This document shows positions 12,067 to 44,246 of a DNA stretch of 44,246 nt, piece after piece (positions within the stretch are counted from its first letter, which is position 1; the number at the start of each line of letters is the position of its first letter). This stretch comes from Nanobdellota archaeon. GTDB taxonomy: Archaea; Nanobdellota; Nanobdellia; Pacearchaeales; GW2011-AR1. The notes below the pieces were generated by a model. The model did no database searches and was not told where the DNA came from. It worked only from the letters and a program-made list of their open reading frames with translations. The stretch lies in assembly GCA_038045865.1 (NCBI GenBank), contig JBBSXH010000070.1:1-44246 (forward strand), in the 5' to 3' direction. Both the position numbers and the translations under genes were made by a program.

Positions 12067-13485
12067 ATGAAAATATTACTAATGAATCCTCCTATGAAAG
12101 AGAAAGAGCTTTTTACTAAGAGTTCAAAAGAAACTGCAAGTAGGATCCCTCCATTAGGACTAGCTTATTTAGGTGCATATCTTGAAAAACAAGGTCATGA
12201 GGTTATGATTTGGGATGGTTTTGTTGAAAGAGATAGTTGGGAAGAAATAAAAAAAAAAGCAGAAAAATATGATTTATTAGGAATACATGTCTTAACAAGT
12301 TTTGCACTAAGGTCTTATCAATTCGCAAAATTTCTTAAAGAAAAACTTCCTAACAAACCAATAGTCTTAGGAGGATGTCATGTTTCTGCATTACCTATTG
12401 AAGCAATAACTAACCCTTTTATAGATTATGTTGTTGTTGGTGAAGGAGAAATTACTTTAGCAGAATTATGTTGGGTTTTAGAAAATAAAAAATATAAAAT
12501 AAAAGATGTCTTGGGAGTATATTACAAAGATAAAAAGAATACTATTAGGTTTAATGGCCAAAGACCTCTTATTAAAAATTTAGATATATTGCCTTTACCT
12601 GCAAGACACTTATTCAAATGGGAGTTATATAAAACAAGTGAAGCAAGAAAAAGTTCTCTTAAGAAAGATGTTGGGATATTAACTAGTAGAGGATGCCCAT
12701 ATCAATGTAGTTATTGTAGTAAAGATGTTACTGGACACAAGATAAGAAATTTTAGTATCCCAAAAGTAATAGAAGAAATTAAACAATTAATTAAGAATTA
12801 TGCTGTGGAAGAAATTTCTATCTGGGACGAAACATTTACTTTACAAAAAGAGAGAGTAATTGAATTTTGCAATGCTCTCAAAAAAGAAAACATAAAGATA
12901 TCTTGGACTTGTTCTAGTAGAGTTGATAAAGTTGATGAAGAATTATTGCAGATAATGAAAAAACATGGATGTAATTTTATTGCTTATGGAATTGAATCAG
13001 GAAATAATGAAATTTTAAAGACTATAAACAAAGGGATAACAAAAGAAAAAATAATTGAAGCTATTAAAATAACTAAAAAAGTAGGAATACCTATAAGAGG
13101 TTATTTTATGATAGGATTATGGGGAGATAATAAAAAAACTATAATGGATACTATCAATTTTTCAAAAAAATTAGATTTAGATATTGCTACTTTTACTCTA
13201 ATGGTTCCTCTCCCAAACACTTTGGATTACAAAAGAGCATCTCAACAAGATAATTTTGTTAAGGAATATTGGAAATTAAGAATGTTTCCAGAATTTAATT
13301 TTTTAGATTCTCCAATATATATTCCAAAAAATATGAAAAAACAAGAATTAATGAGATTACATAAAAAAGCTTATTTTTCTTTTTATTTTAGACCTAAGTT
13401 CATTATTAAACAACTGAAAAATACAAAGTCTATAAAAGATATTAAAAGATTGTCTGCAGGATTAAGAACATTAATAAAAATTTAA
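12067..13485 (+). CDS. B12-binding-domain radical SAM enzyme (class B type)
   Basis: The N-terminus KILLMNPP...GLAYLGAYLEKQGHEV...VLGGCHVSALP forms a cobalamin-binding Rossmann-like domain. The CX3CX2C motif is LTSRGCPYQCSYCS (Cys codons at 12694, 12706 and 12715). I prefer the ATG at 12067 over the GTG at 12055 used by the ORF track. Confidence 0.85.
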   Translation: MKILLMNPPMKEKELFTKSSKETASRIPPLGLAYLGAYLEKQGHEVMIWDGFVERDSWEEIKKKAEKYDLLGIHVLTSFALRSYQFAKFLKEKLPNKPIVLGGCHVSALPIEAITNPFIDYVVVGEGEITLAELCWVLENKKYKIKDVLGVYYKDKKNTIRFNGQRPLIKNLDILPLPARHLFKWELYKTSEARKSSLKKDVGILTSRGCPYQCSYCSKDVTGHKIRNFSIPKVIEEIKQLIKNYAVEEISIWDETFTLQKERVIEFCNALKKENIKISWTCSSRVDKVDEELLQIMKKHGCNFIAYGIESGNNEILKTINKGITKEKIIEAIKITKKVGIPIRGYFMIGLWGDNKKTIMDTINFSKKLDLDIATFTLMVPLPNTLDYKRASQQDNFVKEYWKLRMFPEFNFLDSPIYIPKNMKKQELMRLHKKAYFSFYFRPKFIIKQLKNTKSIKDIKRLSAGLRTLIKI

Positions 13486-13505
13486 AAAATATTCTTTGGA
13501 TAAAC

Positions 13506-14222
13506 TTAAGGTTTTCTGCATACCCCAAATATACTTATTCCTGGAGGAGTTTTAATTTTTTTTTTAAACCAAAAATTTTCTGTTTTAAGGATATTGTACA
13601 AAACAGAATCTATAATAGGATTCGTTATGGGATTTTCTACTTTGGGCTTAGAATATTTTTTTATTAATCTACTAATCACTAAAGGTAAAAATAAAGTGAA
13701 ATTCCAGTAGTTAAAGTATGGATCTTTAAATTCTTTGAAAAGACTTTTCAAATCTTTTTTAGAATATCTTCTTTTATGTTCTACAGCTTTATCATGAGAG
13801 CTGTATATAAATTGAAAAGCAGGTACTGAAAAAATTAGAAAACCATTTTTTTTCAGAACTCTGTATACTTCCGAGATAGCTTTTTTATCATCTTTAATAT
13901 GCTCAAAAACATCAAATGCTACAACTAACTCAAAAAATTCATCAGGATAACTTATATTACAAGCATCACAAATTTTTCTCTCTTTATATAGGTCTTTAGG
14001 TATTAACTTTAATGCTTTTTTTTCTATATCTGTAACATAAACTTCTCCAAATTTATTTAAAGAATATAATTCTTCACCTGTTCCAGCACCCAAACTTAAA
14101 ATTTTTAATTTTTTTGAATGATTTTCAATATATTTTTGCAATAATATTTCTATTAAATCTACTTTGGCTCTAAACCAAAAATTAGTTTTAGAATTTCCTG
14201 CAAGATAATCTTTATAATCCAT
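13506..14222 (-). CDS. Class I SAM-dependent methyltransferase
   Basis: Motif I is ILSLGAGTGEE, followed by an acidic loop (VYVTDIE) and the post-I region VVAFDVFEHI. Confidence 0.7.
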   Translation of the reverse strand: MDYKDYLAGNSKTNFWFRAKVDLIEILLQKYIENHSKKLKILSLGAGTGEELYSLNKFGEVYVTDIEKKALKLIPKDLYKERKICDACNISYPDEFFELVVAFDVFEHIKDDKKAISEVYRVLKKNGFLIFSVPAFQFIYSSHDKAVEHKRRYSKKDLKSLFKEFKDPYFNYWNFTLFLPLVISRLIKKYSKPKVENPITNPIIDSVLYNILKTENFWFKKKIKTPPGISIFGVCRKP

Positions 14223-14925
14223 AGAAAATAGTCTTAAATTTATATTTAAATAACTTTAAAATAGATACAAACCCATCTTTAATAGTTAGTTTAGAACCTT
14301 CTGAATCTTTCCAATTTATAGGGTACTCATAAATCTTAAACCCATTTTTTTTGCAAAGATATAATAAATTCACATCAAATATCCATCCAGATTCAAGATA
14401 ATTTTTAACTAAAAATTTAGCAATATTTTTTTTGAATAACTTTGCTCCACACTGAGTATCATAATATTTTAAATTAAATAATAGTTTAACAAATAAATTA
14501 AAAAAAAAACTGGATAAGTCTTGCATCTTTCTTCTTTTTGGATTAATTATCGCTCCTTTTATTTTTCGAGAACCAACTATTCCTGCATAATTATCTTTGT
14601 ATTTATATAACTTATAGAAATTTTCTGGATTAGTACTATTATCTGCATCACTAAACCCAATATACTCTCCTTTAGCTAATTCAAATCCAGTCATTACAGC
14701 TCTGCCCTTTCCAGAATAATTAGGGATATTGAAAACCCTTATCTGCTTCTTATTTTTAGCAAATTTTTGAGTAATTTCTAAAGTATTATCTTTGCAATTA
14801 TTTGGTATAACAATTATTTCAAATTCATTTCGAAATTTATCATTAAAAAAATTATAATACTCTTCTAAGGTAGGAATAATCCTTTTTTCTTCATTATACG
14901 CAGGAATTATTATTGATAGTTTCAT
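14212..14925 (-). CDS. GT2 glycosyltransferase, polyprenyl/dolichyl-phosphate hexose synthase-like (GtrB/Dpm1 type)
   Basis: The ORF begins MKLSIIIPAYNEEKRI and carries the DxD-like GFSDADNS. It is short (237 aa) and soluble, as in Dpm1/GtrB-type enzymes. Confidence 0.75.
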   Translation of the reverse strand: MKLSIIIPAYNEEKRIIPTLEEYYNFFNDKFRNEFEIIVIPNNCKDNTLEITQKFAKNKKQIRVFNIPNYSGKGRAVMTGFELAKGEYIGFSDADNSTNPENFYKLYKYKDNYAGIVGSRKIKGAIINPKRRKMQDLSSFFFNLFVKLLFNLKYYDTQCGAKLFKKNIAKFLVKNYLESGWIFDVNLLYLCKKNGFKIYEYPINWKDSEGSKLTIKDGFVSILKLFKYKFKTIFYGL

Positions 14926-16424
14926 CTTAAATTATATACTATCAAACTAGGTTGTTTTTTAGTCAAATCTGTAAAATAAATCTGTGCTATTGTTAGATTT
15001 TCCTCTTGGGGAAAAGAATACATCCAGTTGTCATGTCCTTCAAATATAGAAACCACATAAAATTTAAAATTTTTGTCAGAAGAAACTAAGGACTTTAATT
15101 CTTCTTTATCTGATGGGATCATTAAAGTTTTTCTTTCTGAGTAATATTCTATTTGAGGCCAACTTTTGCTAAGGATTTTATCAGAAAACTTAGAGTTTTG
15201 TTTTAACCATAGCCCTGCTTCTTTTACAGGATAATAAGAACTTAATTTATTTTTTATAAGAGAATCTCCAGAATGAATTTGAAAATATGAAAGATAACCC
15301 AATAAAAATATTATAATTAAGATTACTATAATTTTTCCAATTTTTCCTTTTAAAAAATGATATAGAGTTAGAATAAAATAACCTGAAATTATAAAAATTG
15401 CAGGAAATGAATTTAAAATATATCTATCTTCATTAACATGAAGAGAAAAACTTATTAGGAGAATTGGAAATATTAATATTAATATTAAATAAAGATATTT
15501 TTTAATTTCAGTATTATCTTCTTTAAACAACAAATCAAAACCAATGAACAATTTATACATAGCAAATAATCCTAATACAAAAATAATTAATCCAATCCAA
15601 GAAAGATATACTGGAAACAAAAAAATGTAGTTCATTAAAGTAGATATCCCTCCTGAGAGGATATTCTCTTTAGGAGCATTCCATTTTCCAGCTTCTAAGA
15701 TAACAAACTTACCAAATTTAATATATCCCCAGATTATATATGGGGAGATTGTTAAGAAAAATAGAATAACTGAAACCCATACCTCTTTTAATTTAAATAA
15801 TTTTAATCTTTCAGTGATTAATGCATAAATCACTATGGCAAATAATAATGCTACAGTAGGTATTCTAAACATTGTTCCGATGCCGATTAAAACTGTTCCA
15901 ACATATAATGAGATTACAGACTTTTTTATGAAATATCTATAAAAGAAAAATGCAGAAAATGTATAAAATGCAAGAGAAACTAAATCAACAAGAAGCCTAT
16001 ATGTAAAAAAAAGATTTAAGTAAAAAACAGACATGAATAATGCTGAAACTATTCCAATCTTCCTATCAAAAATTTCTTTTCCTAGCAAATAAATTCCAAT
16101 AATTGTGGACATAGAAATCAAAAGAATAAATATTCTTGGTAAAAATTCTGAAACAGAGATTCTTAAGAATAGAGAACTAATGAATGAGAATAAAATCGGT
16201 CTAACTGTTAAAAACGTATAATCCCAACCAAATGCCCAGGCTTTAGCCATACTCATATATTCAGCTTCATCCCACCATAATGCCTGATTATAAGTTAAAA
16301 AAAAATAGTATATCCTGATGATTATTGCAAAAATTAAAACGCCTAAAAAAGCAAGGTTATAGGGATTCTTTATCCATTTAATTATTTTCTCTTTCCTATA
16401 TTCTATAATTTTTGACCCTTCCAT
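14922..16424 (-). CDS. GT-C fold glycosyltransferase (PMT/ArnT-like, family 39/83 type)
   Basis: This 500-aa polytopic protein has an extracytoplasmic first-loop acidic motif (ALWWDEAEYMSMA) and a C-terminal soluble domain. It is translationally coupled (ATGA) to the GT2 downstream. Confidence 0.65.
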   Translation of the reverse strand: MEGSKIIEYRKEKIIKWIKNPYNLAFLGVLIFAIIIRIYYFFLTYNQALWWDEAEYMSMAKAWAFGWDYTFLTVRPILFSFISSLFLRISVSEFLPRIFILLISMSTIIGIYLLGKEIFDRKIGIVSALFMSVFYLNLFFTYRLLVDLVSLAFYTFSAFFFYRYFIKKSVISLYVGTVLIGIGTMFRIPTVALLFAIVIYALITERLKLFKLKEVWVSVILFFLTISPYIIWGYIKFGKFVILEAGKWNAPKENILSGGISTLMNYIFLFPVYLSWIGLIIFVLGLFAMYKLFIGFDLLFKEDNTEIKKYLYLILILIFPILLISFSLHVNEDRYILNSFPAIFIISGYFILTLYHFLKGKIGKIIVILIIIFLLGYLSYFQIHSGDSLIKNKLSSYYPVKEAGLWLKQNSKFSDKILSKSWPQIEYYSERKTLMIPSDKEELKSLVSSDKNFKFYVVSIFEGHDNWMYSFPQEENLTIAQIYFTDLTKKQPSLIVYNLR

Positions 16425-16458: not shown

Positions 16459-17445
16459 TTATTCCAAACTTAAAAGAGTTTTTAATACTTCCTCCACAGA
16501 AATACTATTAACAAGTTCTTCACTATATTGGTCTGATTTTTCTGGAAAAAAATTATAAAGCAAAGGAGAAATTATTTTTGTTAATAACCCATAATCTTCT
16601 ACTTCATTTGGAGAAGTGCAAAAAAATAAAGCAATTGTTGGCTTTTTTAATGCTAAAGAAACATGAAGAGCAAAACTATCAGAACAAATCATTTTAGAAC
16701 ATAAATTTACTAATGCAAAAAATTCATTGTCTGAATTATAAGGATTATTTTGAATAACCTTTATGCCTTGTTTTTTTAAATCTTCTGAAATTTTTTTATG
16801 TTTTTCAATTTCATTTGGACCTCCAAAAAGCAGTATCTCATAATTTTTTTGTTTTGCCTGCTTTATGAATTCTTTTATTTTTTCTTCACTCCAGGATTTA
16901 GAAGGCCATCTTGGAGAAGAGCCTATATGAATACCAATTAATTTTTCTGTATTAATATTATTTTTTTTTATAAACTCCTTTGCATAATCCTTATCTTTTT
17001 CTGTTAAATAAATAGGGTGATGGTGCTTATTATAAGTTAATTCTGCTACTTCAAACATCATTTGCTGATAAGTTTTTCTATTTGTTTTTTTTAATTCATC
17101 GTCAAATAAGGTATTTAAATAATATTCAGCAGGCAGATTAAATGCATTTGCATAACCATCCTTATAATAAAAGCCATATTTTTTAACTGCTATTATTTGA
17201 TTTGCTAATTTAGTTGCTTCTTCTTCTATATCAAAATTATACAAGATATCAAAAGTTTCGTTTATTTCACAAGGCAAGGTAATTATCTTTTTTATATACG
17301 GGCTTGTTTCTAAAATTTGTCTAGAAGATTGTTTAGTTATCCAACATATTTCTGAATTGGGATATTTTTCTTTTAATGCTATTAAAACAGGCAAAGTTCT
17401 GATTACATCTCCCTTTGCACCTAACTTGATTATAAGCATTTTCAT
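16459..17445 (-). CDS. GT9 family glycosyltransferase (heptosyltransferase-like)
   Basis: The N-terminus MKMLIIKLGAKGDVIRTLPVLIALKEKYPNSEICWITKQ is the classical RfaC/RfaF opening. The C-terminal region CSKMICSDSFALHVSLALKKPTIALF matches the GT9 donor-binding region. Confidence 0.75.
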   Translation of the reverse strand: MKMLIIKLGAKGDVIRTLPVLIALKEKYPNSEICWITKQSSRQILETSPYIKKIITLPCEINETFDILYNFDIEEEATKLANQIIAVKKYGFYYKDGYANAFNLPAEYYLNTLFDDELKKTNRKTYQQMMFEVAELTYNKHHHPIYLTEKDKDYAKEFIKKNNINTEKLIGIHIGSSPRWPSKSWSEEKIKEFIKQAKQKNYEILLFGGPNEIEKHKKISEDLKKQGIKVIQNNPYNSDNEFFALVNLCSKMICSDSFALHVSLALKKPTIALFFCTSPNEVEDYGLLTKIISPLLYNFFPEKSDQYSEELVNSISVEEVLKTLLSLE

Positions 17446-17913: not shown

Positions 17914-17939
17914 ATTAATCAGTTTAATAAATAATAAAA

Positions 17940-18632
17940 ATGGAGTTGTTGTTAATTATTCTTTGGATTGCATTAATCACTGCATTTTCATTGTTTGGTT
18001 CATGGTATGCCCGCAAATATAACAAGCCAGATGCACTTATTGGACTCTATGTAGCTTTTATTTTAATCAGTAATATAATTGCCTATAAAATAGTTGTTTT
18101 TGATTTTGGAATTATCACATTTTTTGCAACAGCAGCTACTTTAGTTTTTTCAGTAACTTTCCTTTTAACAGATATTATAAATGAGAAGTTTGGCAGAAAA
18201 GAGACACAAAAAATGATATTTATTGCATTTATTACTCAAATTGCTGTTGCTTTTTTTATTTGGCTGGCAATTTCATTAAAGCCAGCCCCATTTTGGCCAG
18301 ACCAAGAAATTTTTGTTCAAATAATTGGATTTGCTCCGAGAATAATGCTTGCTTCATGGGTTGCTTTTTTAATAAGTGAAAATACAGATGCTTATCTCTT
18401 TTCATGGTTTAAAAAAATAACAAATGGAAAACATCTATGGATAAGAAATGTATTTTCTTCAATTCCTTCAATGGCTTTAGATACACTTATTTTTGTAACA
18501 ATTGCATTCTATAAGGTTCAACCAATTTTACCTTTAATTATAGGAGTTCTTGCAATAAAATGGCTTGTTGGGATAATTGATATACCTTTTATGTATTTGA
18601 ATAGATGGATAATGTATAAAAATAAGGGTTAA
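17940..18632 (+). CDS. yhhQ: Queuosine-precursor transporter family protein (YhhQ / DUF165 / VUT)
   Basis: The ORF has six TM helices and the conserved FLLTDIINEKFGRKETQKMIF segment. Confidence 0.65.
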   Translation: MELLLIILWIALITAFSLFGSWYARKYNKPDALIGLYVAFILISNIIAYKIVVFDFGIITFFATAATLVFSVTFLLTDIINEKFGRKETQKMIFIAFITQIAVAFFIWLAISLKPAPFWPDQEIFVQIIGFAPRIMLASWVAFLISENTDAYLFSWFKKITNGKHLWIRNVFSSIPSMALDTLIFVTIAFYKVQPILPLIIGVLAIKWLVGIIDIPFMYLNRWIMYKNKG

Positions 18633-19534
18633 TCAAGAGGTTTAGTTGAGTTTATTTCAGTTTCTCTCCAACCATCTGAATAACTTTTCATTTTCTTTAG
18701 TTCTCTAAATGCTCTTAAATAAACATATAATCTTGCAAAATAAATCTGAATTGTCCAAAAAAATTGTTTAAGACTTCTTGGGTAAACAAGTGCATATAAA
18801 CCTCCAAACCTCACTTCATTAAAAAATGATTTTGTCCTTGGCAAATCAGGAACTAATTTATTAAGATTTTCATGTCCTTTTATATTCCTAATTTTTTGGT
18901 TTATCCAATCTTTCCAATTATCTGGATTTTTTACATAAACTTCTGCTTTTGAGACATATTTTATTTTATATCCTTTTTTCCAAAATAAATAAGGAATTAC
19001 ACTATCTTCAGAAACATCAATTGGAAATTCTCTTATTATTCCATTTCTAATCGCAAATAAATAACCCGAAGTTTCAAAAAATTTATCTTCTTTAGATAAT
19101 TCAAACCTGACATTATGAATCCCTGAAAAAAGAAGGTTTGCCCAGTACCCATATTTAGTAGATTTATCTTCAACAGGAATAGGTCTTCCAGTTATGCAAC
19201 CAATTTTTTTATCTTCAAATGTTTTAATAATCTCTTTTAATGAGTTTTCAGAAACAAAAACATCTCCGTCTGTGAAAATAATTATATCTTCCTTGTTTTC
19301 AGAATAAATTTTTGTTAACAAAAGATTTAAAGCATAACTTTTGCCTTCTCCAGAATCAAGAAAAAATCCAACCCGTTTGTCTTTAATATTCTGTTTTAAA
19401 AATTCTTTAACTTCTGAAAATGGGTCGCAGATAATTATTCTAAAAGGTTGTTTAATATCTTGATTTAAAAAAGCATTTATTGCTTTTAAAGTAGCTTTCG
19501 GTTCATTGTAAGAAGTTATTATTATATCTATCAT
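18629..19534 (-). CDS. GT2 family glycosyltransferase
   Basis: The ORF begins MIDIIITSYNEPKATLKAI and carries the DxD motif IIFTDGDVF. Confidence 0.7.
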   Translation of the reverse strand: MIDIIITSYNEPKATLKAINAFLNQDIKQPFRIIICDPFSEVKEFLKQNIKDKRVGFFLDSGEGKSYALNLLLTKIYSENKEDIIIFTDGDVFVSENSLKEIIKTFEDKKIGCITGRPIPVEDKSTKYGYWANLLFSGIHNVRFELSKEDKFFETSGYLFAIRNGIIREFPIDVSEDSVIPYLFWKKGYKIKYVSKAEVYVKNPDNWKDWINQKIRNIKGHENLNKLVPDLPRTKSFFNEVRFGGLYALVYPRSLKQFFWTIQIYFARLYVYLRAFRELKKMKSYSDGWRETEINSTKPLD

Positions 19535-19536
19535 TT

Positions 19537-19731: not shown

Positions 19732-19753
19732 AGATTATCAAGGATAAAGTAAA

Positions 19754-19782
19754 TTTATAAAGTTTATTAAGGTGAGATAAAC
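19754..19782 (+). promoter_or_regulatory. queC upstream region: TATA-like TTTATAAAGTTTATTA plus GGTGA 7 nt before the ATG
   Basis: The sequence is TTTATAAAGTTTATTAAGGTGAGATAAAC-ATG. The A/T box lies about 26 nt before the ATG, compatible with a leaderless transcript, or GGTGA acts as a Shine-Dalgarno-like site. The related AAAAGTTTATTGGTGA occurs at 30114-30129 before the HD gene. Confidence 0.4.
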
Positions 19783-20491: not shown

Positions 20492-22027
20492 TTATTTATA
20501 TCTCGATTTATCATACCATACCTTAAAGTTGGTGGGCATACTTCTATAAAGGGGTTTAAGAATCTGTTCTCTTATCAAATCTGCAAAACTTAAAACCTTC
20601 AATGCAACCAAAGTTGGAAATTTATTTTTTAAATTTCTTTGAATTCTCCTAGGTTCTAACAAATAATTAATTAAAAAATTAGGCATTAATCCAAATTTTT
20701 TTTCAGTCACTATCCCTCTCATTAAATTAAGAATAAGAACTAAATACATATTTTTTCTTTTTAATAAAATATGTGCACTTCTATCCCAATAATTTAATGT
20801 AACCGCAGAATCTTTTGAACTCTTAATTATTTTATCCTTAATAGCTTTTTCATATAATTTTGAACCATGAAAAAAAACTAAATTATTCACAGAAAGAAAA
20901 TATGGTTTAGGTATTTTTTGCAATAATCTTATCATACTAATCACATCTTCTGAGGTTTCATAAGGATTACAAGTAATCACATCATACATTACTGTTAATT
21001 TATCTTTATATTGATTAATAATATGTGATGCCCTTAGAACTTCTCTATCTGTTTGATTTCTATGATAAATTTCTCTATTTACTCTTTCAGCACCTTGTAT
21101 GCCTACAATTATGTCTGTACATCCTGCATCAACTAATAATCTTATTTTTTCATTATCTACTGTTTTTGGGTCTGCAAGACATTTAAATCTAAGCCCTACT
21201 TTTGCTTTATACTCTTTATTAAATTCTTTAAAATGTTCAAAGGGTCTTAAAGAAAAAGTATCATCTCTTATATCAAAATAACTTAAACTAGGGAATTTAT
21301 TCTTTAATTCTAAGATTCCCCTGATAACATAATTTATACTATGCCATCTAACAATTTTTTTTCTTTTGCCTTTATACAATTCATTTAACAAACTATTACT
21401 ACAATAATCACAACCATAAGGACACCCTCTTCCAGTTAAAAAGAAAATTGCACCATCTAAATCATTTTCTGAAAATTTTCTTATTTTATGATGGCCAAGA
21501 ATATAATGAGTTTTAGTGTCATAATCAGGCAAAGGTATACTATCTAAATCATCAATTAACTCTCTTACTGAGTTTTTCATAATTTTCTCGCCTTTTTTAA
21601 TCCATAAATTTTTTATTTTGTCTATTGATTTATTTTTTGTTAATGCATTTACTAAATCTAAAATCGCTCCTTCCCCTTCTCCAACACAAACAATATTACA
21701 ATTCTTAATACACTCTTGAGGTGAAATTGTTGCATGAATGCCTCCCCAGACAATAGGGATTTTTGGTAGGTGTTTTTCAAGATGTTTTATTATTTGAACT
21801 GCTCTTGGAGCTGTTGAGACAAAAGAAGAAATTCCTATTAAATCAGAATTTTTGCAAATTTTTGCTAACTGAGATAATTCATTTTTAGTATAAAATTTAG
21901 AATAATCTTCACTTAGAGCCATAAATATCATGATTACATTATGTCCTACTTTTTTTAAAACAGAAGAAATTGTTCTTATTCCTTGATCAGAAGGATATGT
22001 TGCTGCAGAAATTAATGTTATTCTCAT
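20492..22027 (-). CDS. B12-binding-domain radical SAM enzyme
   Basis: The N-terminal domain reads MRITLISAA...VWGGIHATISP...VCVGEGEGAILDLV. The CX3CX2C motif is LTGRGCPYGCDYCS. Confidence 0.85.
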   Translation of the reverse strand: MRITLISAATYPSDQGIRTISSVLKKVGHNVIMIFMALSEDYSKFYTKNELSQLAKICKNSDLIGISSFVSTAPRAVQIIKHLEKHLPKIPIVWGGIHATISPQECIKNCNIVCVGEGEGAILDLVNALTKNKSIDKIKNLWIKKGEKIMKNSVRELIDDLDSIPLPDYDTKTHYILGHHKIRKFSENDLDGAIFFLTGRGCPYGCDYCSNSLLNELYKGKRKKIVRWHSINYVIRGILELKNKFPSLSYFDIRDDTFSLRPFEHFKEFNKEYKAKVGLRFKCLADPKTVDNEKIRLLVDAGCTDIIVGIQGAERVNREIYHRNQTDREVLRASHIINQYKDKLTVMYDVITCNPYETSEDVISMIRLLQKIPKPYFLSVNNLVFFHGSKLYEKAIKDKIIKSSKDSAVTLNYWDRSAHILLKRKNMYLVLILNLMRGIVTEKKFGLMPNFLINYLLEPRRIQRNLKNKFPTLVALKVLSFADLIREQILKPLYRSMPTNFKVWYDKSRYK

Positions 22028-23154: not shown

Positions 23155-23199
23155 AATTTCTTAAATTAAAGATATTTAAAAAGATTTAGATGGGAGATA

Positions 23200-24879: not shown

Positions 24880-25051
24880 ATTTTTAATTAAGTCTTTATT
24901 TTAAACTAATAATCCTTAAATATAAATACTTATAAAGTTTATTAAGGTGAAAAATATGAAAAAATAATATTATTACTATGAAAAACAATGATTTAATGAA
25001 TAGAATAGACAAAATTTTGAGAAATTTTAAAAGTTTATATCATCATTAAAA

Positions 25052-31483: not shown

Positions 31484-31485
31484 CT

Positions 31486-34177: not shown

Positions 34178-35263
34178 ATGAGTGGACAAAATACAAAACA
34201 ACCTTATGGAGAATTAAAAATAATTTGGCATCCTGAAAAATTAGAAGCATTATTAAAAGGAGAAATCTCTGCACCAATAGCAATAAGGATTAAACCAACA
34301 AATAAATGTGACCACAGATGTTTTTTTTGTTCTTATAATCCTGAAGCAAAAAATCTACTTTCTGAAGAAATAAATTTAAATGATGAAATCCCTCAAGAAA
34401 AAATGATGGAAGTTTTGTCTGACCTTGGAGAAATGGGAGTTAAAGCAGTTACATATTCTGGAGGAGGAGAACCTTTAATTTACCCACACATCATTCAGAC
34501 TTTTAAAAAGACTTTAGATAATAAATTAGATTTATCAATTATTACTAATGGACAAAGACTTTCAGAAGAGCGAGCAGAATTATTAACTCAGGCAAAATGG
34601 GTGAGAATTTCTGCAGATTATTGTGATATAAGCACATTTGTACAATCTAGAAGAATTACAGAAAAATCTTTTGATAAATTAAAAGAAAATATCAAAAAAT
34701 TTGCTAAGATAAAAAATTTAGAGTGTGAATTAGGGATTAATTTTATTGTGCACCATATGAATCAAGATAAAGTTTATGAAGCAGCTAATTTCTTTAAAGA
34801 TTTAGGAGTTAATCATATAAGATATGCTCCTCGTTGGATGGAAGAAGGATGGGAAAAATATCATACCTCTTTTAAAGAAAATGTAATAGAACAAATTAAA
34901 AAAGCAAGACAAGACCTTAATGACGAAAGATTTAAGGTTTACGATGTTTATGAAAAAGACCTAAATAATCCAAAAATAATTGAAAGACCATATTCAAAAT
35001 GTTCAATAATGCAAATTGTTCCAGTTATTGCAGCAGATTCTGCAGTTTATTTTTGTCATGATAAAGCTTATACAAAAAACGGAAGATTAGGTTATATAAA
35101 AGAACAATCATTCAAAGATTTGTGGTTTAGTAAAGAATCTAAAGAAAAATTTAAAAATTTTGATGCAAAAGTTGAATGCAAACAACATTGTGTTTATGAT
35201 GGTAAAAATAGTCTTATAGAAGAGATAATTAATAGTCATGGAAATCATGTAAATTTTATCTAA
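34178..35263 (+). CDS. Radical SAM enzyme, paralogue 2 of the approximately 355-aa set
   Basis: The motif KPTNKCDHRCFFCSY is followed by YSGGGEPLI. The C-terminal cysteines are CSIMQIVPVIAADSAVYFCHD and CKQHC. It ends with HVNFI. Confidence 0.8.
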   Translation: MSGQNTKQPYGELKIIWHPEKLEALLKGEISAPIAIRIKPTNKCDHRCFFCSYNPEAKNLLSEEINLNDEIPQEKMMEVLSDLGEMGVKAVTYSGGGEPLIYPHIIQTFKKTLDNKLDLSIITNGQRLSEERAELLTQAKWVRISADYCDISTFVQSRRITEKSFDKLKENIKKFAKIKNLECELGINFIVHHMNQDKVYEAANFFKDLGVNHIRYAPRWMEEGWEKYHTSFKENVIEQIKKARQDLNDERFKVYDVYEKDLNNPKIIERPYSKCSIMQIVPVIAADSAVYFCHDKAYTKNGRLGYIKEQSFKDLWFSKESKEKFKNFDAKVECKQHCVYDGKNSLIEEIINSHGNHVNFI

Positions 35264-37394: not shown

Positions 37395-38456
37395 TTATAA
37401 AAAATTAGAATGAATTATTGGATTTTTTATTGAATACAATAATTCTATATTTTTTTCAAATTGGCAAGGATTTGGACAGTCTACTAAATTTATTTTATTT
37501 TTAATCTCCCCTCTTTCTTCAGATAACCATATTTCTTTAAAAGATTTTTTTTTCAGATCACCAAAACAATATTTTTCATTTCCTTTTAAAGCACAACAGA
37601 GATAAACTTTTAAATCAGCAGTTATTGAAGTAAGAAAATCTGGAAAATAACATTTATTATAATTTCTTTTTACATCCCCTTCTATTAATTCATATTCACA
37701 ACGATTAAGAGGATATGAAACTGAAAATTTATCATTTTCTAGCTCTTTACATTCCTCTAATTTTTCAATCATCCTCTCTGCTTGTTTTGGGGTAAAATTT
37801 CTTTTTTTCCCACGATTAAGAAAAGGCCTGAATCTTATATAATCCATTCCCAATTCTTTAGAAATTTTAGTTGCATTATAAATCCCTTCAATTGAATGCG
37901 AACCAATCAAATAACAAGCCCCAATAACAATATCACTCTTGTTTTCTTCCTTTGCATTTACCAATCTAGAAATATTTCCAATAACTTTAGAAAAAGCATC
38001 CCCCCTCATACCATGAGTTTTTTTGTAAATTTTAGGTCCATCTGCATCTAAACTTATTCTCGCCCAGGTACAAGAATCCACTATTGAATCTATAACCCCC
38101 TCAGAAAGTTCGTAGCAATTAGTATAAATTGCAGATTCCATTTTTTTGGATTTAACAAATCTTAAAATTTCTTCTAAATTTAGATTACATGAAGGTTCGC
38201 CACCACCCCCAAACCCAATTGCTTTTACATCAACTTCTTTTAATTGTGAAAGAATATTCTTTGCATCAGTTAATTTAACAACTGTAGAATCAAGATTTTT
38301 GGAACCATTACATAGGGGACAATGATTATTGCATTTATTTGACAAATCAAAGTCTACAAAAACAGGATAGGTGGTTTCTCCTTTTTCCCAATTAACTAAT
38401 CTATTAAAATGGTTTAGTAATTTATATTGACTATAGATATTTTTATTTAAGCTCAT
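37395..38456 (-). CDS. Radical SAM enzyme, paralogue 3 of the approximately 355-aa set
   Basis: The motif DLSNKCNNHCPLCNG is followed by FGGGGEPSC. The C-terminal cysteines are CYFPDFLTSITADLKVYLCC and CPNPC. It ends with HSNFL. Confidence 0.8.
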   Translation of the reverse strand: MSLNKNIYSQYKLLNHFNRLVNWEKGETTYPVFVDFDLSNKCNNHCPLCNGSKNLDSTVVKLTDAKNILSQLKEVDVKAIGFGGGGEPSCNLNLEEILRFVKSKKMESAIYTNCYELSEGVIDSIVDSCTWARISLDADGPKIYKKTHGMRGDAFSKVIGNISRLVNAKEENKSDIVIGACYLIGSHSIEGIYNATKISKELGMDYIRFRPFLNRGKKRNFTPKQAERMIEKLEECKELENDKFSVSYPLNRCEYELIEGDVKRNYNKCYFPDFLTSITADLKVYLCCALKGNEKYCFGDLKKKSFKEIWLSEERGEIKNKINLVDCPNPCQFEKNIELLYSIKNPIIHSNFL

Positions 38457-39477: not shown

Positions 39478-39485
39478 ATTTGTTT

Positions 39486-40064: not shown

Positions 40065-40075
40065 TTTATTAAAAA

Positions 40076-41530
40076 TTAATCGTAGTCTACTTTTGTTCCA
40101 GCAGTCCTTCTTGTAGATTTTCTCCATTTATCAACTTCATCCAAAGTAATACCATTCATTTCTGCTATTTTCTTTATCTTTTCAGGGCGACTAAAACAAA
40201 TTCTATCCCATTCATAGGCCCTTACAATTTGAAGCTCCTGAGGAGTAAATTCAGGAGTAGTTATAGTTGCTCTTCCAAAACCCCTTGTATCCACATTATC
40301 AAAGCTAAAATTTTCTGAAAGAAAATTACCTTCTTTAGCAATTTGATAAAGTTTTGTTTTAGGAAGAGGTGTTGCGATATTGAAGGAATAACAATCTAAA
40401 TCTAATTCATCTGCTAATTTAAATGAGTTTCTAATTTCTTCCCAGGTTTCCCCAGGAGTGCCTATAACAAATAGGCCTGAAAGTTGGAAATCCAAAGAAC
40501 GAGCTTTTTTAACAATTGGTTTTATCTTCTTTAAAATGCTAGTAGGTTTATTTAATCTTTTCAATCCTTCAAGATTACCTGACTCTATTGCTAAGATTAG
40601 TTGATATCCTCCGCTAGCTCTAGTAAGTTCTAAAATCTCATCATTTAAAGCATAAACTGCTACACTTGGATTTTTCCATTCTAAATCATGTTTTCTTTCT
40701 ATTAAGCCATTCATAATAATTTTAACTCTTTTGTGGTCTAAAAAAAAGTTATCATCCATAAAAATTATTTCTTTTACTCCTTTTTCATCAACAAGCCAAT
40801 CAATTTCCTTAAGCACTGATTCTGGAGAACGATATCGTATTTTAGGACCATTAATTACTTTACTGCTACAAAAGATACAATTAAAAGGGCAACCTCTTGA
40901 AGTTATTGTATTTGCATATGGTAATCTTCGAGGATATACAAAATAAGAATATTTATTTGTAGTATTTGCATAATTATTAAAATCCAGATTATCATAATTT
41001 GGAAGAGGTAGTGCATCTAAATCCTGAATATAACTTTCAACTTTGTTAATTTTAATATCTTCTCCTAAACGAAGAGCAATTCCCTCCATATCATTAACAT
41101 CTTCATTTTTTTCTAATTTTTCTAATAACTTTGGGAATCTATACTCTCCTTCACCAAGAACAGCATAATCAATATTTTTATCGTGCATTATTACTTCAGG
41201 TAAAAGTGTTGGATAAATTCCTCCAACAATCACAGGAGTTTTTGGATATACTTCTTTTACAAGAGCAGTCATTTTTTGAAATTGTCTTGCATATTCCATA
41301 GACATACAAGTCAAACCAAAAACATCAGGATTATAATCGTTTATTCTTTGTTTTACTTGTTCAAAATTTAAATTTTCAAAACCAGCATCCAATATCTTTA
41401 CTTCATATTTGTCTTTTAATACTGAATTAAGAACCCCGAAAGTATAAGGGAAATTATGCCAATGACGATTATCAAACCAAGCATCATTTGGTGCCGCTAA
41501 CATTATTTTTTGTAGATTAGATTCTTTCAT
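40076..41530 (-). CDS. B12-binding-domain radical SAM enzyme
   Basis: The N-terminal domain reads KIMLAAPN...VIVGGIYPTLLP...AVLGEGEYRFPKLL. The CX3CX2C motif is ITSRGCPFNCIFCSS. Confidence 0.85.
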   Translation of the reverse strand: MKESNLQKIMLAAPNDAWFDNRHWHNFPYTFGVLNSVLKDKYEVKILDAGFENLNFEQVKQRINDYNPDVFGLTCMSMEYARQFQKMTALVKEVYPKTPVIVGGIYPTLLPEVIMHDKNIDYAVLGEGEYRFPKLLEKLEKNEDVNDMEGIALRLGEDIKINKVESYIQDLDALPLPNYDNLDFNNYANTTNKYSYFVYPRRLPYANTITSRGCPFNCIFCSSKVINGPKIRYRSPESVLKEIDWLVDEKGVKEIIFMDDNFFLDHKRVKIIMNGLIERKHDLEWKNPSVAVYALNDEILELTRASGGYQLILAIESGNLEGLKRLNKPTSILKKIKPIVKKARSLDFQLSGLFVIGTPGETWEEIRNSFKLADELDLDCYSFNIATPLPKTKLYQIAKEGNFLSENFSFDNVDTRGFGRATITTPEFTPQELQIVRAYEWDRICFSRPEKIKKIAEMNGITLDEVDKWRKSTRRTAGTKVDYD

Positions 41531-41689: not shown

Positions 41690-42961
41690 TTAACAAATCT
41701 TATAAAAATAAATCTGTCTAATATTCTTTTTTGTTTTAACAACATCTTTAATAAATTTTTCTAATCTTGGGAACTGTTTTTCCATTGAATAATCCTCTCT
41801 CATTTTTAAAACATTTTTTTCTAATTTAGGATAATCTAATTTTTTTATTATTTTTCTTAAATCTTTAATATCTTTTGGCAAAATTAAATTGATACCATAT
41901 TTCTTTCTAAGATTATTTGTAAAAGTATACCATTTTCCATAAAAAAATGGAATTCCTGCTTCTAAATATGTGGAAATCTTATTTCCGGTACCTAATCCAG
42001 GTTCTAAACCGTCTTCCTTATGCTTTGTAAAAAGGGATATACCAAAATCATATTTTGAAATTTCTTTTACAATTTCTTTGGGATTAAATGATTTTTCTAA
42101 ATGAAAATATTTTATATTTGGATAATCTTTATATTCTTCTAGAAATCGCCTTATTAAATCCTGTTCATTAGGTTCTTCTTTATTTGGAATGCTTAGGGAA
42201 AAATAAAAATGAATATGGATCTTTTGTTCGATGACTTCTTTAGATTGTTTTAAAAAAATAGAATAAAACTCTTTAGATCTTTTTCCAGCGCCTCCAATAT
42301 ATACTAAATGTAGTTTCCCATCCTCTTTAGATAATTTATTTTTGTTTGTAGGAACACAAAATTCTTTTGAGCAATAAGGATGGAAGGCTATTTGATGCTT
42401 GGGTAATTTAATATTATTTCCTAACATTCTACCATTTAGATATTTTAATTCATTTGGAGCCCCCTTATGCATTATTCCGTCAGAATGTTCAAAACAAAAC
42501 CTATCCGCTTTTATTTCAAAAGAAGGAAGCGTTTTTTTGGCTATTTCTAAGGTTGGAAATGCCTGACTCCGAATATCATAAGGGAAATAAACAAAAGGAG
42601 TTTTCTTAAAAAAAATTCTAAAAAAAGCAATAGGGGAACTAAGAGGTGCCCTCCCAATAATTACATAAGGCTTTAATCTTAAAATGTTTACAAAAGAAGT
42701 AATCAAAAATTTCAAATTTTTAATATTTGAAATAATAATTTTTAAAAGATTTTTATAGGTCACTTTATGATAACTTAATTTAAACTCAATAACTTTATCG
42801 TATGCTTGATTGTAAAATCGCTTGTCGGATTCTACTTGTTCTAAAAGCCTGATCAAAATAGTCTCATATCCTTTTTCTTTAAATAATTTAGCGATTTTAT
42901 AAGTTATTACATAAGAGTACCCTTCTATAAACACTATTTGTTTTTTTCTCATTTTATTCAT
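41690..42961 (-). CDS. Uncharacterised protein, possible GT-B-fold glycosyltransferase
   Basis: The N-terminal Rossmann-like start is KQIVFIEGYSYVITYKIAKLFKEKGYE. The C-terminal half has HLVYIGGAGKRS and GLGTGNKISTYLEAGIPFFY, which resemble a GT-B donor-binding domain. The assignment is weak. Its start overlaps the upstream stop as ATGA. Confidence 0.35.
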   Translation of the reverse strand: MNKMRKKQIVFIEGYSYVITYKIAKLFKEKGYETILIRLLEQVESDKRFYNQAYDKVIEFKLSYHKVTYKNLLKIIISNIKNLKFLITSFVNILRLKPYVIIGRAPLSSPIAFFRIFFKKTPFVYFPYDIRSQAFPTLEIAKKTLPSFEIKADRFCFEHSDGIMHKGAPNELKYLNGRMLGNNIKLPKHQIAFHPYCSKEFCVPTNKNKLSKEDGKLHLVYIGGAGKRSKEFYSIFLKQSKEVIEQKIHIHFYFSLSIPNKEEPNEQDLIRRFLEEYKDYPNIKYFHLEKSFNPKEIVKEISKYDFGISLFTKHKEDGLEPGLGTGNKISTYLEAGIPFFYGKWYTFTNNLRKKYGINLILPKDIKDLRKIIKKLDYPKLEKNVLKMREDYSMEKQFPRLEKFIKDVVKTKKNIRQIYFYKIC

Positions 42962-44246
42962 ATTTTTTTCTTTAAAAAATTAGATTTTAGTCTTAAAAAA
43001 CTTTTTCTAAAAAGATCCAGCCTCTGATAGTGTTTAAGTGCAAATTTATACAAGGGACTTGCTATATGAAACCGCATATGGCAATTTTTACAAGAAGTTA
43101 AATCATTATAAAACCTATTTCCAGTTAAGAAGAAATTTTTATAATGTATCTCTTCATTACAAAAAGGGCATTTTATTAAGAGTTCGTAACGATCCTGATT
43201 TTTATTACTTTTGTCTTTTTTAATTTTAAGAGGAGTTATATATTTTACATATTTTGTTCGAGTTTCTAAGATTTCTTTTTTTAATTGTAATACTTCATCA
43301 TCAGTCATCTTTTCAGTCATATTCAACCAATTTGTGATTGGAAGATCATTTTTTATAAAAGAAAGCTTATTTTTTATTATCCCTTTTTTTACACAATAAT
43401 TGTAAATCTCGCTTCCTGGATAAGGTTGAATAAAACCCAAATTGACTTGACCCATACAATTTTTTTTGCAGTAGTCCAAGGTTTCTTTTGCAGTTTCTTT
43501 GGTTTCAGCGATATCACCAAATATAAAATTTCCTTGAATTGCTAAGCCATATTGCATCGTTAATTTAATAGCATTATCAATCTGTTGAGGAGTTATTGGT
43601 TTTTTCATACTCTTCAAAACAATAGAACTATAACTTTCAAAACCATAACTAATCGAGTAACATCCTGCATCTTTTAGGGTTTCAAGCATTTCTTTGTCTA
43701 CATTAATAACAGATAATTGACAAGTCCATTTTATCTCTTGAGAAATCTCGTTACTTAATTTTTTAATCCTTTTGCAAAAATCATATAATCTTTGTTTGTC
43801 AACTGAAAATAAATCATCGTAAATTGAAATAACATTAATTTTATATTTTTTTATTGCGTTTTCTAATTCCTTCATTATGTTATCTAATGAACGTATTCTA
43901 TACTTAAGTCCAAGACAATGATAACAAAAAGTACATTGAAATGGGCATCCTCTGCTACATAAAATAGAATAAACTCTAGGGTAATCAAATATACATCCAT
44001 AAGGAGCATTATTAAAGCTCATATTTCTTAATTGCTCTTCAAAACCAAGACCCTCAAAATCTGGAAAAGGTAAAGAATCTATATTTTTAATAGATTCACG
44101 AAGTTTTGTAAAAACTACTTTTCCTTCATTCCCACTATAAATAATTCCATTCACACCTTTAACATCCATTTTTCTATCCAAACAATCTAATAGTTCAATA
44201 ATTGTTTCTTCTCCTTCTCCAATAACTCCAAAATCTGGTTTTAAAG
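42958..44246 (-). CDS. B12-binding-domain radical SAM enzyme (5' end runs off the window)
   Basis: The CX3CX2C motif is LCSRGCPFQCTFC. The reading frame stays open upstream of the ORF-track start (a TTG at 44181) and reads ...LKPDFGVIGEGEETIIELLDC up to the window edge, which is the usual end of the B12-binding domain. The C-terminus carries an extra CPFCNEE...CKNCH zinc-ribbon-like motif. Confidence 0.8.
   Translation of the reverse strand, partial: LKPDFGVIGEGEETIIELLDCLDRKMDVKGVNGIIYSGNEGKVVFTKLRESIKNIDSLPFPDFEGLGFEEQLRNMSFNNAPYGCIFDYPRVYSILCSRGCPFQCTFCYHCLGLKYRIRSLDNIMKELENAIKKYKINVISIYDDLFSVDKQRLYDFCKRIKKLSNEISQEIKWTCQLSVINVDKEMLETLKDAGCYSISYGFESYSSIVLKSMKKPITPQQIDNAIKLTMQYGLAIQGNFIFGDIAETKETAKETLDYCKKNCMGQVNLGFIQPYPGSEIYNYCVKKGIIKNKLSFIKNDLPITNWLNMTEKMTDDEVLQLKKEILETRTKYVKYITPLKIKKDKSNKNQDRYELLIKCPFCNEEIHYKNFFLTGNRFYNDLTSCKNCHMRFHIASPLYKFALKHYQRLDLFRKSFLRLKSNFLKKKI

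Follow-up and report, generated by a model that had tools for sequence, protein, structure and literature searches.

The 44,246-nucleotide stretch considered here (the window; assembly GCA_038045865.1, contig JBBSXH010000070.1, positions 1 to 44,246), from an archaeon of the Nanobdellota, carries nine genes for radical S-adenosylmethionine (SAM) enzymes in an island of glycan-assembly genes; they are named rSAM1 to rSAM9 in order of position. It is probable that the island is an envelope glycan locus of the Nanoarchaeota/Pacearchaeota type of DPANN archaea, in which the nine proteins would serve as modular tailoring enzymes for sugar building blocks. As judged from sequence, they most likely use radical chemistry to tailor nucleoside diphosphate (NDP)-heptose-type and lipid-linked sugars destined for the cell envelope. 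The classes of the enzymes, their coupling in operons, their conservation and the gene fusions are observed directly; from these, in the genome context of uncultured organisms, we infer every substrate and every reaction. An earlier inspection of the DNA letters and their translations (the sequence-only reading) had proposed radical sugar tailoring for this locus, and the proposal gains support from operons and 4-bp overlaps shared with glycosyltransferase genes, from fusions found in related loci, and from the position of AprD4, DesII, BtrN and BlsE as nearest neighbours of several of the proteins.

Each of the nine translated open reading frames (ORFs) contains exactly one CX3CX2C motif, with the residues that the sequence-only reading had quoted, and all nine exceed the gathering threshold of the Pfam Radical_SAM family (PF04055; 35.8-100.2 bits, threshold 29.5), so that they do not represent chance cysteine patterns. 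The starts quoted for them hold as ORF positions; for minus-strand genes, the low coordinate given as a start is the stop end. The region from 12.0 to 44.2 kb has 31 ORFs of 100 amino acids or more and one of 64 amino acids, which agrees with the earlier tally of 32, and radical SAM genes account for nine of these approximately 32. None is found among the 11 genes of the first 12 kb of the window. Since radical SAM genes usually make up roughly 1-2% of all genes in anaerobes, a share of about 28% constitutes a very strong local enrichment. The nine are deep, old paralogs with 20-33% mutual identity and no recent duplicates among them, and no transmembrane (TM) segments are predicted in any.

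Four of the proteins, rSAM1, rSAM2, rSAM8 and rSAM9, are class-B-like enzymes with a B12-binding domain. rSAM1 (12055..13485, plus strand; alternative start 12067) has the motif CPYQCSYC at residue 214 and a Radical_SAM score of 100.2 bits, rSAM2 (20492..22027, minus strand) has CPYGCDYC at residue 202 (51.6 bits), and rSAM8 (40076..41530, minus strand) has CPFNCIFC at residue 214 (71.1 bits). The N-terminal domains of these three score above the 32.1-bit cut-off of the B12-binding family PF02310, with 64.2, 58.6 and 66.5 bits, respectively. rSAM9 (42958..44246, minus strand; CPFQCTFC, 69.4 bits) has its N-terminus cut at the window end. Its frame is open to the last base, 44246, with the GEGE motif of the B12 domain in frame, and the ORF listing gives a TTG "start" at 44181 that is artefactual. 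On the contig CAYIPX010000001.1 of a metagenome-assembled genome (MAG; L007, 5578-5944) a run of N lies exactly at the rSAM9 cut; upstream of it a B12-type N-terminus is encoded in frame. An ortholog of 535 amino acids (59% identity, L096) is annotated as B12-binding; because of these features rSAM9 is a fourth full-length B12-type enzyme, interrupted by a scaffold gap.

The other five, rSAM3 to rSAM7, are of the SPASM/twitch type. rSAM4 (28036..29094, minus strand, 352 amino acids; CNHGCVFC at residue 41, Radical_SAM 61.1 bits), rSAM5 (33163..34125, plus strand; CNAHCTMC at residue 42, 58.5 bits), rSAM6 (34178..35263, plus strand; CDHRCFFC at residue 44, 64.6 bits) and rSAM7 (37395..38456, minus strand; CNNHCPLC at residue 42, 48.9 bits) pass the 21.5-bit cut-off of the SPASM family PF13186 with 37.7, 53.2, 30.4 and 33.7 bits. 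The small rSAM3 (26589..27542, minus strand; CNLNCSFC at residue 23, 35.8 bits), with its Cys-rich C-terminus, scores 18.7 bits and lies under that cut-off. C-terminal cysteines number four in rSAM4 and rSAM6, five in rSAM5, and six or more in rSAM3 and rSAM7. The seven-cysteine pattern of a full SPASM domain with two auxiliary clusters (CX9-15GX4C...CX2CX5CX3C...C) is not found in rSAM4, rSAM5 or rSAM6, and their cysteine counts, with no N-terminal extension, would fit a twitch domain with a single auxiliary cluster, as in BtrN. rSAM7 is a paralog of rSAM4 and rSAM6 (26-27% identity).

The glycan genes that the sequence-only reading had listed around these enzymes were all recovered when every other ORF was scanned with Pfam and NCBIfam, the kinase with a weak, APH-like match. 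They comprise the oligosaccharyltransferase AglB, a polyprenyl-phosphate phosphoglycosyl transferase (GPT), GtrA, two GT2 glycosyltransferases, a GT4, two GT9 enzymes, a GT-C of the PMT_2 type and a Wzx flippase. Further neighbours are a Glyco_trans_1_2 protein, an HldE-like protein, a Nudix hydrolase, two RmlD-like short-chain dehydrogenases/reductases (SDRs), a WbuC cupin, two class I methyltransferases and a split thiamine diphosphate (ThDP) enzyme; the HldE-like gene and the split ThDP enzyme had been missed in the earlier inventory. Several radical SAM genes are physically coupled to these neighbours. The kinase-like gene (unk332, an APH-like putative sugar kinase, 29091..30089), rSAM4, the Nudix gene (27596..27994, a profile match), rSAM3, Wzx, the Glyco_trans_1_2 gene, GT4 (these three together 22024..26581, Wzx with 15 TM-like segments) and rSAM2 form a single minus-strand array with short gaps, and overlaps of 4 bp exist between rSAM2 and GT4, between rSAM4 and the kinase-like gene, and between rSAM9 and a gene termed unk423. 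The kinase-like product has a weak NCBIfam APH match, and its homolog in L157 matches Pfam APH. Upstream on the same strand lie the two halves of the transketolase-like ThDP enzyme (30929..32223), a Transketolase_N protein of 245 amino acids and a Transket_pyr protein of 184 amino acids without a Transketolase_C domain, and the class I SAM methyltransferase MT2 (32231..32893, a profile match). rSAM5 and rSAM6 are followed by an RmlD-like reductase (35283-36155, plus strand) and the heptosyltransferase-family enzyme GT9b (36139-37089, minus strand; 61% ortholog in L094), and beyond rSAM7 lie the second RmlD-like reductase (38602-39477, plus strand) and the WbuC-family cupin (39486-40127, minus strand; NCBIfam cupin_WbuC 87.7 bits, cut-off 42), with rSAM8 directly upstream of the cupin gene.

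At the other end of the island rSAM1 is flanked by a plus-strand gene pair for GPT (Glycos_transf_4) and a GtrA-like membrane protein (10554..11974, overlapping by 4 bp) and by a minus-strand operon of the methyltransferase MT1, the small polyprenyl-P-sugar-synthase-like GT2a and the PMT_2 type GT-C (13506..16424, with overlaps of 11 and 4 bp). The combination of GPT/GtrA with MT1-GT2a-GT-C is laid out like a three-component extracytoplasmic glycosylation system, an arrangement that has been described for bacteria (PMC11127046). A second heptosyltransferase-family enzyme, GT9a (16459..17445, minus strand; Pfam Glyco_transf_9, 64.2 bits), comes next. The HldE-like gene (5638..7059, plus strand) would encode a bifunctional heptose-7-P kinase / heptose-1-P adenylyltransferase with Pfam PfkB and CTP_transf_like domains; in NCBIfam the whole protein scores 452 against a cut-off of 521, domain I 320.9 against 345, and domain II 182.3 against 181.5.

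Conservation was assessed by a metagenome scan with an rSAM4 alignment followed by local BLAST against the window proteins, and counts were taken over the 31 loci that are 12 kb or longer. Of these, 18 have both transketolase halves, 16 have MT2, 16 HldE, 13 rSAM3, 12 the kinase-like gene and 10 GT9b. At least three radical SAM genes occur in 18 of the 31, and five to eight in 10. The WbuC cupin and the RmlD-like reductase recur in rSAM4 cassettes as well. Orthologs of rSAM4 (58-74% identity) and of rSAM6 (51-74%) each fall into more than 120 clusters, which are named Nanoarchaeota or Pacearchaeota where they are named, and many pairs of the two lie on the same contig. Gene order is partly retained. 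In L092 the order MT2-TK_N-TK_C-rSAM4-Nudix-rSAM3 is colinear with the window; six radical SAM genes fall within 21 kb there, accompanied by GT4s, a DegT aminotransferase, a WbuC-like gene and C-methyltransferases of the TylC3 type. rSAM3 orthologs (55-68%) come after rSAM4/Nudix in L092, L158 and L133, and the Nudix gene neighbours rSAM4 orthologs in L092 and L095 and shares a locus with an rSAM6 ortholog in L096. L095 and L096, both from Pacearchaeota, have five radical SAM genes each with ThDP enzymes, Nudix, RmlD-like genes and glycosyltransferases, and L096 has an HldE-like gene. Related DPANN genomes and metagenome contigs retain the co-localisation with glycosyltransferases, whose absence from every related genome the sequence-only reading had named as an outcome that would speak against it. 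A related island, L094, has orthologs of GPT (78%) and GtrA (58%) at its edge and also a 35% ortholog of the window's second GT2, GT2b (18629..19534, minus strand).

The surroundings of rSAM1 are conserved over a greater distance. A 72% ortholog stands in the order GT2-rSAM1-MT-PMT-Wzx with two more radical SAM genes close by, and a 39% homolog in Pseudodesulfovibrio methanolicus stands in the order epimerase-GT2-rSAM with LPG_synthase_TM nearby. Among the matches listed, GT2a homologs lie within ±10 kb of rSAM1-like genes in 19 of 80 distant loci, and a scan of genome contigs with an rSAM1 alignment gave, again among the matches listed, distant paralogs of at most 38% identity.

The radical SAM battery is a lineage-wide feature of DPANN archaea, wider than this locus. 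Mostly B12-type batteries of six to nine radical SAM genes per 11-21 kb were also seen in five loci (L068, L014, L058, L029 and L034), whose hosts are a groundwater Deltaproteobacterium, unclassified bacteria, Bacteroidales and a Woesearchaeote; by scans of L068, L014 and L058 and BLAST matches in L034, neighbours in L068 include membrane acyltransferases, methyltransferases and LPG_synthase_TM, those in L014 and L034 include GT2, and those in L058 include GT9. Acetolactate-synthase-type ThDP enzymes (TPP_enzyme_N/M/C) lie amid radical SAM and sugar genes at 6011-7792 of L095 (593 amino acids) and at 3322-5874 of L096 (850 amino acids), and represent a second ThDP enzyme type found repeatedly with such batteries. 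In the relative that has the 72% rSAM1 ortholog (L008-L010), several genes for sulfatases and phosphodiesterases surround an rSAM5-like SPASM gene (33%), which could encode an anaerobic sulfatase maturase. A corresponding role in the window was considered on the strength of this SPASM gene and rejected, as no sulfatase gene is found there.

Gene fusions join members of the conserved core to one another. In L094 (6772-11812) three consecutive genes are fusions, of GT9b with a transketolase-N/E1-like domain (528 amino acids), of Transket_pyr with rSAM6 (559 amino acids) and of MT2 with rSAM4 (603 amino acids). Besides L094, at least five clusters contain the MT2~rSAM4 fusion, and the Transket_pyr~rSAM6 fusion is found in four cases (L094, P0333, P0349 and P0357). 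In L158 (9521-11047) a cytidylyl/adenylyltransferase domain with 51% identity to the C-terminal domain of the window HldE is fused to an rSAM4 ortholog, giving a protein of 509 amino acids. Taken together, the fusions point to a tie of rSAM4 and rSAM6 to sugar-nucleotide metabolism. The active site of a ThDP enzyme requires the PP and Pyr halves together; because of this requirement, the GT9b~TK_N and TK_Pyr~rSAM6 fusions would be expected to join GT9b and rSAM6 in one complex. No description of transketolase-half fusions to radical SAM or GT9 proteins was found in the literature searched.

The core also exists outside the archaea. Contigs of 45-49% G+C (L084, titled Omnitrophota, and the metagenome contigs L157, L166 and L172) carry rSAM4 orthologs of 39-52% identity in a cassette with the order SDR epimerase - HldE-like - SIS (GmhA-like) - rSAM4 - TK_N - TK_C - x - APH kinase - MT2 - Zn-dependent alcohol dehydrogenase - epimerase - TylC3-like C-methyltransferase - WbuC - RmlD. 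By its gene content this cassette is a putative nucleotide-heptose-type tailoring operon centred on a radical SAM gene, and its distribution implies that it has been passed between bacteria and DPANN archaea.

None of the nine radical SAM proteins attains the cut-off of any curated NCBIfam family, housekeeping families included. The housekeeping families scored were MoaA, MiaB/RimO, HemN/HemW, QueE, NrdG, Tes and MgmA, and the best scores against the respective cut-offs were 69/325 for MoaA, 49/251 for MiaB/RimO, 23/325 for HemN, 28/260 for QueE, 35/450 for Tes and 117/360 for MgmA. Since every NCBIfam match is far under its cut-off, the nine belong to no characterised family; placement in well-known housekeeping families, which the sequence-only reading had named as the outcome that would speak against it, did not occur for any ORF. 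HpnJ (TIGR03471, cut-off 577.6 bits) is the best match of rSAM1 (229 bits) and rSAM9 (145 bits) and the second best of rSAM2 (78 bits) and rSAM8 (160 bits). AprD4 (NF033070, cut-off 500 bits) gives 102, 30, 60 and 76 bits for rSAM1, rSAM2, rSAM8 and rSAM9, and DesII (TIGR04426, cut-off 450 bits) gives 51, 39 and 35 bits for rSAM4, rSAM6 and rSAM7. The best match of rSAM8 is the Sden_1168 P-methyltransferase family, at 181 of 575 bits. Phosphonate chemistry was considered on account of this family and PhpK, both among the better matches, and was set aside, as no phosphoenolpyruvate mutase is present and the scores are far under the cut-offs.

Among proteins of solved structure, the closest match by sequence is AprD4 for rSAM1 (2.9e-24) and for rSAM9 (1.2e-16), while rSAM8 matches MgmA (PDB entry 9CCB) and TokK most closely and also AprD4. 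BtrN and BlsE are the closest sequences to rSAM4 and rSAM5; for rSAM5 the BtrN match (1.6e-15) is restricted to residues 238-320 and BlsE gives 8.6e-6, so that rSAM5 may be described as a twitch-type protein with a BtrN-like C-terminal domain. rSAM6 is closest to MoaA. Matches are weak for rSAM2 (TokK, OxsB), rSAM3 and rSAM7. A model of rSAM4 (pLDDT 92.4) has DesII (8hzv) as its top PDB entry in Foldseek (E 1.7e-16, TMq up to 0.73), with SuiB, SkfB, BlsE, anSME and CteB at a short distance, and a model of rSAM1 (pLDDT 92.8) has AprD4 at the top (TM 0.74/0.77, E 9.1e-26), with MgmA, OxsB and TsrM close behind.

Several known enzymes share part of their properties with those of the window. DesII, the TDP-4-amino-4,6-dideoxy-D-glucose deaminase/dehydrogenase of desosamine synthesis, converts a nucleotide sugar to a keto-deoxy sugar by radical SAM chemistry and is the top fold match of rSAM4. 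DesII differs, however, in sequence (16% identity), in length (~470-480 amino acids) and in its occurrence alone in an actinomycete antibiotic cluster, whereas the 352-residue rSAM4 has a twitch-like C-terminal cluster domain and resides in a heptose-type cassette. AprD4, the 1,2-diol dehydratase of apramycin synthesis, acts on a carbohydrate and, like rSAM1, has a Rossmann-like N-terminal domain ahead of the radical SAM core; it shares 19% identity with rSAM1 and is cobalamin-free, while the window proteins pass the Pfam B12-binding threshold. BtrN (2-deoxy-scyllo-inosamine dehydrogenase) and BlsE are, like rSAM4 and rSAM5, small proteins with one auxiliary-cluster twitch domain, and their substrates are carbohydrates or nucleoside sugars, but core E-values are weak, and in rSAM5 the match extends over no more than the C-terminal domain. 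HpnJ, which performs the ring contraction of the hopanoid cyclitol ether, is class-B-like and remodels a lipid-attached sugar, as does the class-B-like calditol synthase Cds, and rSAM1 lies in a module of the polyprenyl-P-sugar type; the island, however, has no hopanoid or calditol context, and the HpnJ scores of 78-229 bits are far from 577.6. GenK, GenD1 and Fom3, whose types C-methylate unactivated carbons of sugars or phosphonates, share the B12-binding plus radical SAM architecture of rSAM1, rSAM2, rSAM8 and rSAM9. They occur singly in antibiotic clusters, whereas four such genes stand together in this archaeal primary envelope locus, and no family cut-off is reached. The bacterial NDP-heptose route (GmhA-HldE-GmhB, the Campylobacter-type 4,6-dehydratase/epimerase/reductase, and GT9) is paralleled by the HldE-like, two GT9, RmlD-like and cupin genes of the window, but tailoring there employs SDR dehydratases where radical SAM enzymes are found here, and the window is without GmhA and GmhB. 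NDP-heptose enzymes do occur in archaea (PMC11461863).

A reading of the island as several modules is preferable to one as a single pathway. The first module would comprise GPT, GtrA, rSAM1, MT1, GT2a and the PMT_2 GT-C. In it GT2a may load a sugar onto polyprenyl phosphate, the HpnJ/AprD4-like rSAM1 and MT1 would probably alter the polyprenyl-phosphate sugar, GtrA may help to flip it over the membrane, and the GT-C would transfer it outside the cell. The second, conserved module would comprise HldE, the APH-like kinase, rSAM4, the Nudix hydrolase, rSAM3, the split ThDP enzyme, MT2, rSAM5, rSAM6, the RmlD-like enzymes, the WbuC cupin and GT9, and its most likely product is an NDP-activated heptose-type sugar. 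The ThDP enzyme might supply sedoheptulose-7-P or carry out a two-carbon extension. Like BtrN, DesII and AprD4, the twitch enzymes may dehydrogenate or dehydrate by radical chemistry and so generate keto or deoxy intermediates, after which the cupin would epimerise, the RmlD-like enzymes reduce, MT2 methylate and the GT9-type enzymes transfer the product. rSAM2, rSAM8 and rSAM9, each coupled to a glycosyltransferase or the cupin, probably perform C-methylation or AprD4-like deoxygenation. Wzx would export the completed glycans, and AglB or the GT-C would attach them. A more specific form of this scheme, which we put forward tentatively and regard as possible though doubtful, is that the conserved core (HldE-like, rSAM4, rSAM3, split ThDP enzyme, rSAM6, MT2 and GT9b) is a physically coupled assembly, as suggested by the fusions of GT9 with TK_N, TK_Pyr with rSAM6, and a methyltransferase or a nucleotidyltransferase with rSAM4. 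Carbon-carbon chemistry at ThDP would there be combined with radical SAM chemistry to give a new branched or chain-extended, methylated heptose-derived sugar, a signature of Pacearchaeota and Nanoarchaeota surfaces shared with some bacteria such as Omnitrophota.

A number of observations weigh against the sugar-tailoring scheme. For every reaction type proposed (C-methylation, deoxygenation, epimerisation and chain extension) the support consists of genomic context and remote similarity and can at most suggest the assignment. Pfam scans found no GmhA (SIS) or GmhB gene in the window, which leaves the heptose route incomplete, and the transketolase-like pair, lacking a C-terminal domain, could be a mere housekeeping source of sedoheptulose-7-P. 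rSAM2, rSAM5 and rSAM7 each occur in just two to three of the 31 related loci, so that their membership of the pathway is uncertain and the battery is in part variable. The best PDB matches of rSAM3 are the peptide maturases SkfB and CteB. The Foldseek margins are slim, at 1.7e-16 for DesII and 9.7e-16 for the peptide maturase SuiB with rSAM4, and at 9.1e-26 for AprD4 and 4.3e-25 for the protein methylase MgmA with rSAM1; the top structural neighbours of both models are sugar enzymes, by margins too slim to decide function. AprD4 has a related N-terminal domain but binds no cobalamin (PMC12931638), a precedent in view of which the B12-domain proteins of the window are to be regarded as putative cobalamin enzymes.

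Some or all of the radical SAM enzymes, mainly the B12-type and rSAM1 especially, might instead act on polyprenyl-phosphate sugars or membrane-lipid head groups in the manner of HpnJ or calditol synthase, by ring contraction or carbocycle formation. We regard this as rather unlikely overall. HpnJ is among the top two NCBIfam matches of all four B12-type proteins, and a ladderane-lipid B12 family scores as well; rSAM1 is located between GtrA and the MT-GT2-GT-C operon, its adjacency to GT2 is maintained from DPANN archaea to Pseudodesulfovibrio with LPG_synthase_TM nearby, and the bacterial battery L068 has both LPG_synthase_TM and membrane acyltransferases. Yet the HpnJ score reaches no more than 229 of 577.6 bits and that of Tes at most 35 of 450, the nine proteins are without predicted TM segments, and Pfam scans of the window revealed no lipid-core biosynthesis gene, as the sequence-only reading had stated. 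Fusion of SPASM/twitch enzymes to nucleotidyltransferase, methyltransferase and ThDP domains argues, moreover, for soluble sugar metabolism. A polyprenyl-P-sugar substrate is a sub-case of the sugar-tailoring explanation and not an alternative to it; of the lipid head-group chemistry considered earlier, a lipid-linked substrate for rSAM1 (a polyprenyl-phosphate-linked sugar may be altered) is plausible, and a core-lipid role is unlikely.

Very little weight can be given to the view that the SPASM/twitch proteins are maturases of peptides made on the ribosome and modified after translation (RiPPs), or of surface proteins by cross-linking, that merely lie beside glycan genes, an alternative that the earlier reading had kept and that is now disfavoured. 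The SPASM domain is typical of peptide maturases, and the resemblance of rSAM3 to SkfB and CteB and the position of SuiB, SkfB, anSME and CteB right behind DesII for the rSAM4 model would be in keeping with it. The CX3CX2C motif, however, lies at residues 23-51 in the five proteins, leaving no space for an N-terminal RiPP recognition element (RRE), no PqqD/RRE Pfam match was obtained among the scanned ORFs of at least 100 amino acids, and rSAM4, rSAM5 and rSAM6 carry four to five C-terminal cysteines and not the seven of a full SPASM domain. The intergenic gaps hold no Cys-rich or leader-like short ORF, in accordance with the precursor's reported absence, the sole sizeable one (64 amino acids) being cysteine-free, and the window has no peptidase and no ABC exporter. 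The fusions and the conserved position between GmhA-like/HldE-like and transketolase genes are, again, suited to sugar metabolism. Least probable of all is the absence of any joint function, the island being hypervariable, horizontally assembled and a collection of unrelated, perhaps partly inactive radical SAM genes. The depth of the paralogy, the rarity of rSAM2, rSAM5 and rSAM7 orthologs in the related loci, the interspersed housekeeping-type QueC and YhhQ genes, and an rSAM4 cassette held in common with bacteria, suggesting lateral transfer, would agree with such a history. Against it, the ORFs are all intact and their motifs kept, several radical SAM genes overlap glycosyltransferase genes by 4 bp, G+C content is uniform along the window at ~26%, and the core (rSAM4, rSAM3, rSAM6, the transketolase halves, MT2, HldE and GT9b) recurs together, with members fused elsewhere.

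Radical SAM tailoring of sugars is known chiefly from single enzymes of antibiotic pathways. Literature searches covering archaeal N-glycosylation, DPANN surface glycans, capsule and O-antigen, transketolase and heptose, and B12 radical SAM enzymes in exopolysaccharide and lipopolysaccharide synthesis found no radical SAM enzymes in archaeal glycosylation and no such batteries in glycan loci, and the absence of any described archaeal pathway of this kind, as claimed in the sequence-only reading, is borne out within that literature. The reviews found in these searches make no mention of glycans. Lone unannotated radical SAM genes are present in bacterial capsule loci, for example in Campylobacter jejuni HS:19 (PMC8743553). 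The island suggests that radical SAM sugar tailoring has moved into, and multiplied within, the primary envelope glycan synthesis of DPANN archaea, with a core shared with uncultured bacteria. If so, unusual sugars (deoxy, C-methyl, and branched or extended heptoses) are predicted on the surface of ultra-small symbiotic archaea, whose surface chemistry probably mediates attachment to the host. rSAM4 and rSAM6 would then represent at least two large, well-conserved enzyme families with candidate substrates and fusion partners, and the presence of four putative cobalamin enzymes in a reduced genome would raise the question of their cofactor.

The remaining genes of the island require briefer mention. 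AglB (7667..10471, plus strand), an oligosaccharyltransferase of the STT3 family, scores 36.8 bits for STT3 (cut-off 24.5) and 23.5 bits for STT3-PglB_core (cut-off 23), and has 13 TM-like segments; both the STT3 membrane domain and the WWDXG catalytic motif (WWDYG at residue 634) are present. Between HldE and AglB, at 7060-7666, lie 607 bp without an ORF of at least 100 amino acids, the longest gap of the island; tRNA and Rfam scans of the window, this gap included, returned no matches. A 264-amino-acid protein is encoded at 30140-30934 on the plus strand, opposite to the kinase-like gene and the transketolase halves between which it lies. It has no Pfam match, shows weak similarity to HD domains (Cas3'' HD), and could be the missing sugar-phosphate phosphatase. 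unk423 (41690..42961, minus strand) has a weak sugar-transferase match and is probably a Gtf3-like GT-B glycosyltransferase, as indicated by homologs annotated Gtf3_C; a 53% paralog of 409 amino acids lies just past the window end (L007, 4349-5578), and neither copy has a Pfam match. Beyond the window end the contig continues with this Gtf3-like paralog, a 471-amino-acid protein without assigned function, a GT2 and an SDR, and with no additional radical SAM genes.

The island is interrupted at 17482-20475 by a nucleoside 2-deoxyribosyltransferase-like gene, a Vut_1/YhhQ-type transporter of the preQ0/queuosine-precursor family and QueC, whose end lies 16 bp from the convergent rSAM2. The group looks like a small salvage set for 7-deazaguanine (archaeosine), and the earlier statement that no cofactor pathway gene lies nearby is in this respect not quite right. 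Participation of the neighbouring radical SAM enzymes in QueE-type queuosine salvage was examined and rejected, with QueE at 28 of 260 bits for rSAM3 and not listed for rSAM2. Within the same interval, the intergenic ORF of 64 amino acids mentioned above (19537-19731, minus strand; ATG start, zero cysteines; MKKYAKDLKKGDKVTIANQKFLVNTIELSDIGKQGKRKVRLELL...) looks like a small OB-fold or eIF5A-N-like protein and not a peptide precursor. The presence in the window of a prefoldin, a protein of the eIF-2B family and AglB is consistent with an archaeon, and identical proteins, which their source names "Nanoarchaeota archaeon", are found on Hainich groundwater metagenome contigs (0.2 µm fraction) and in the MAG GCA_964365455.1.

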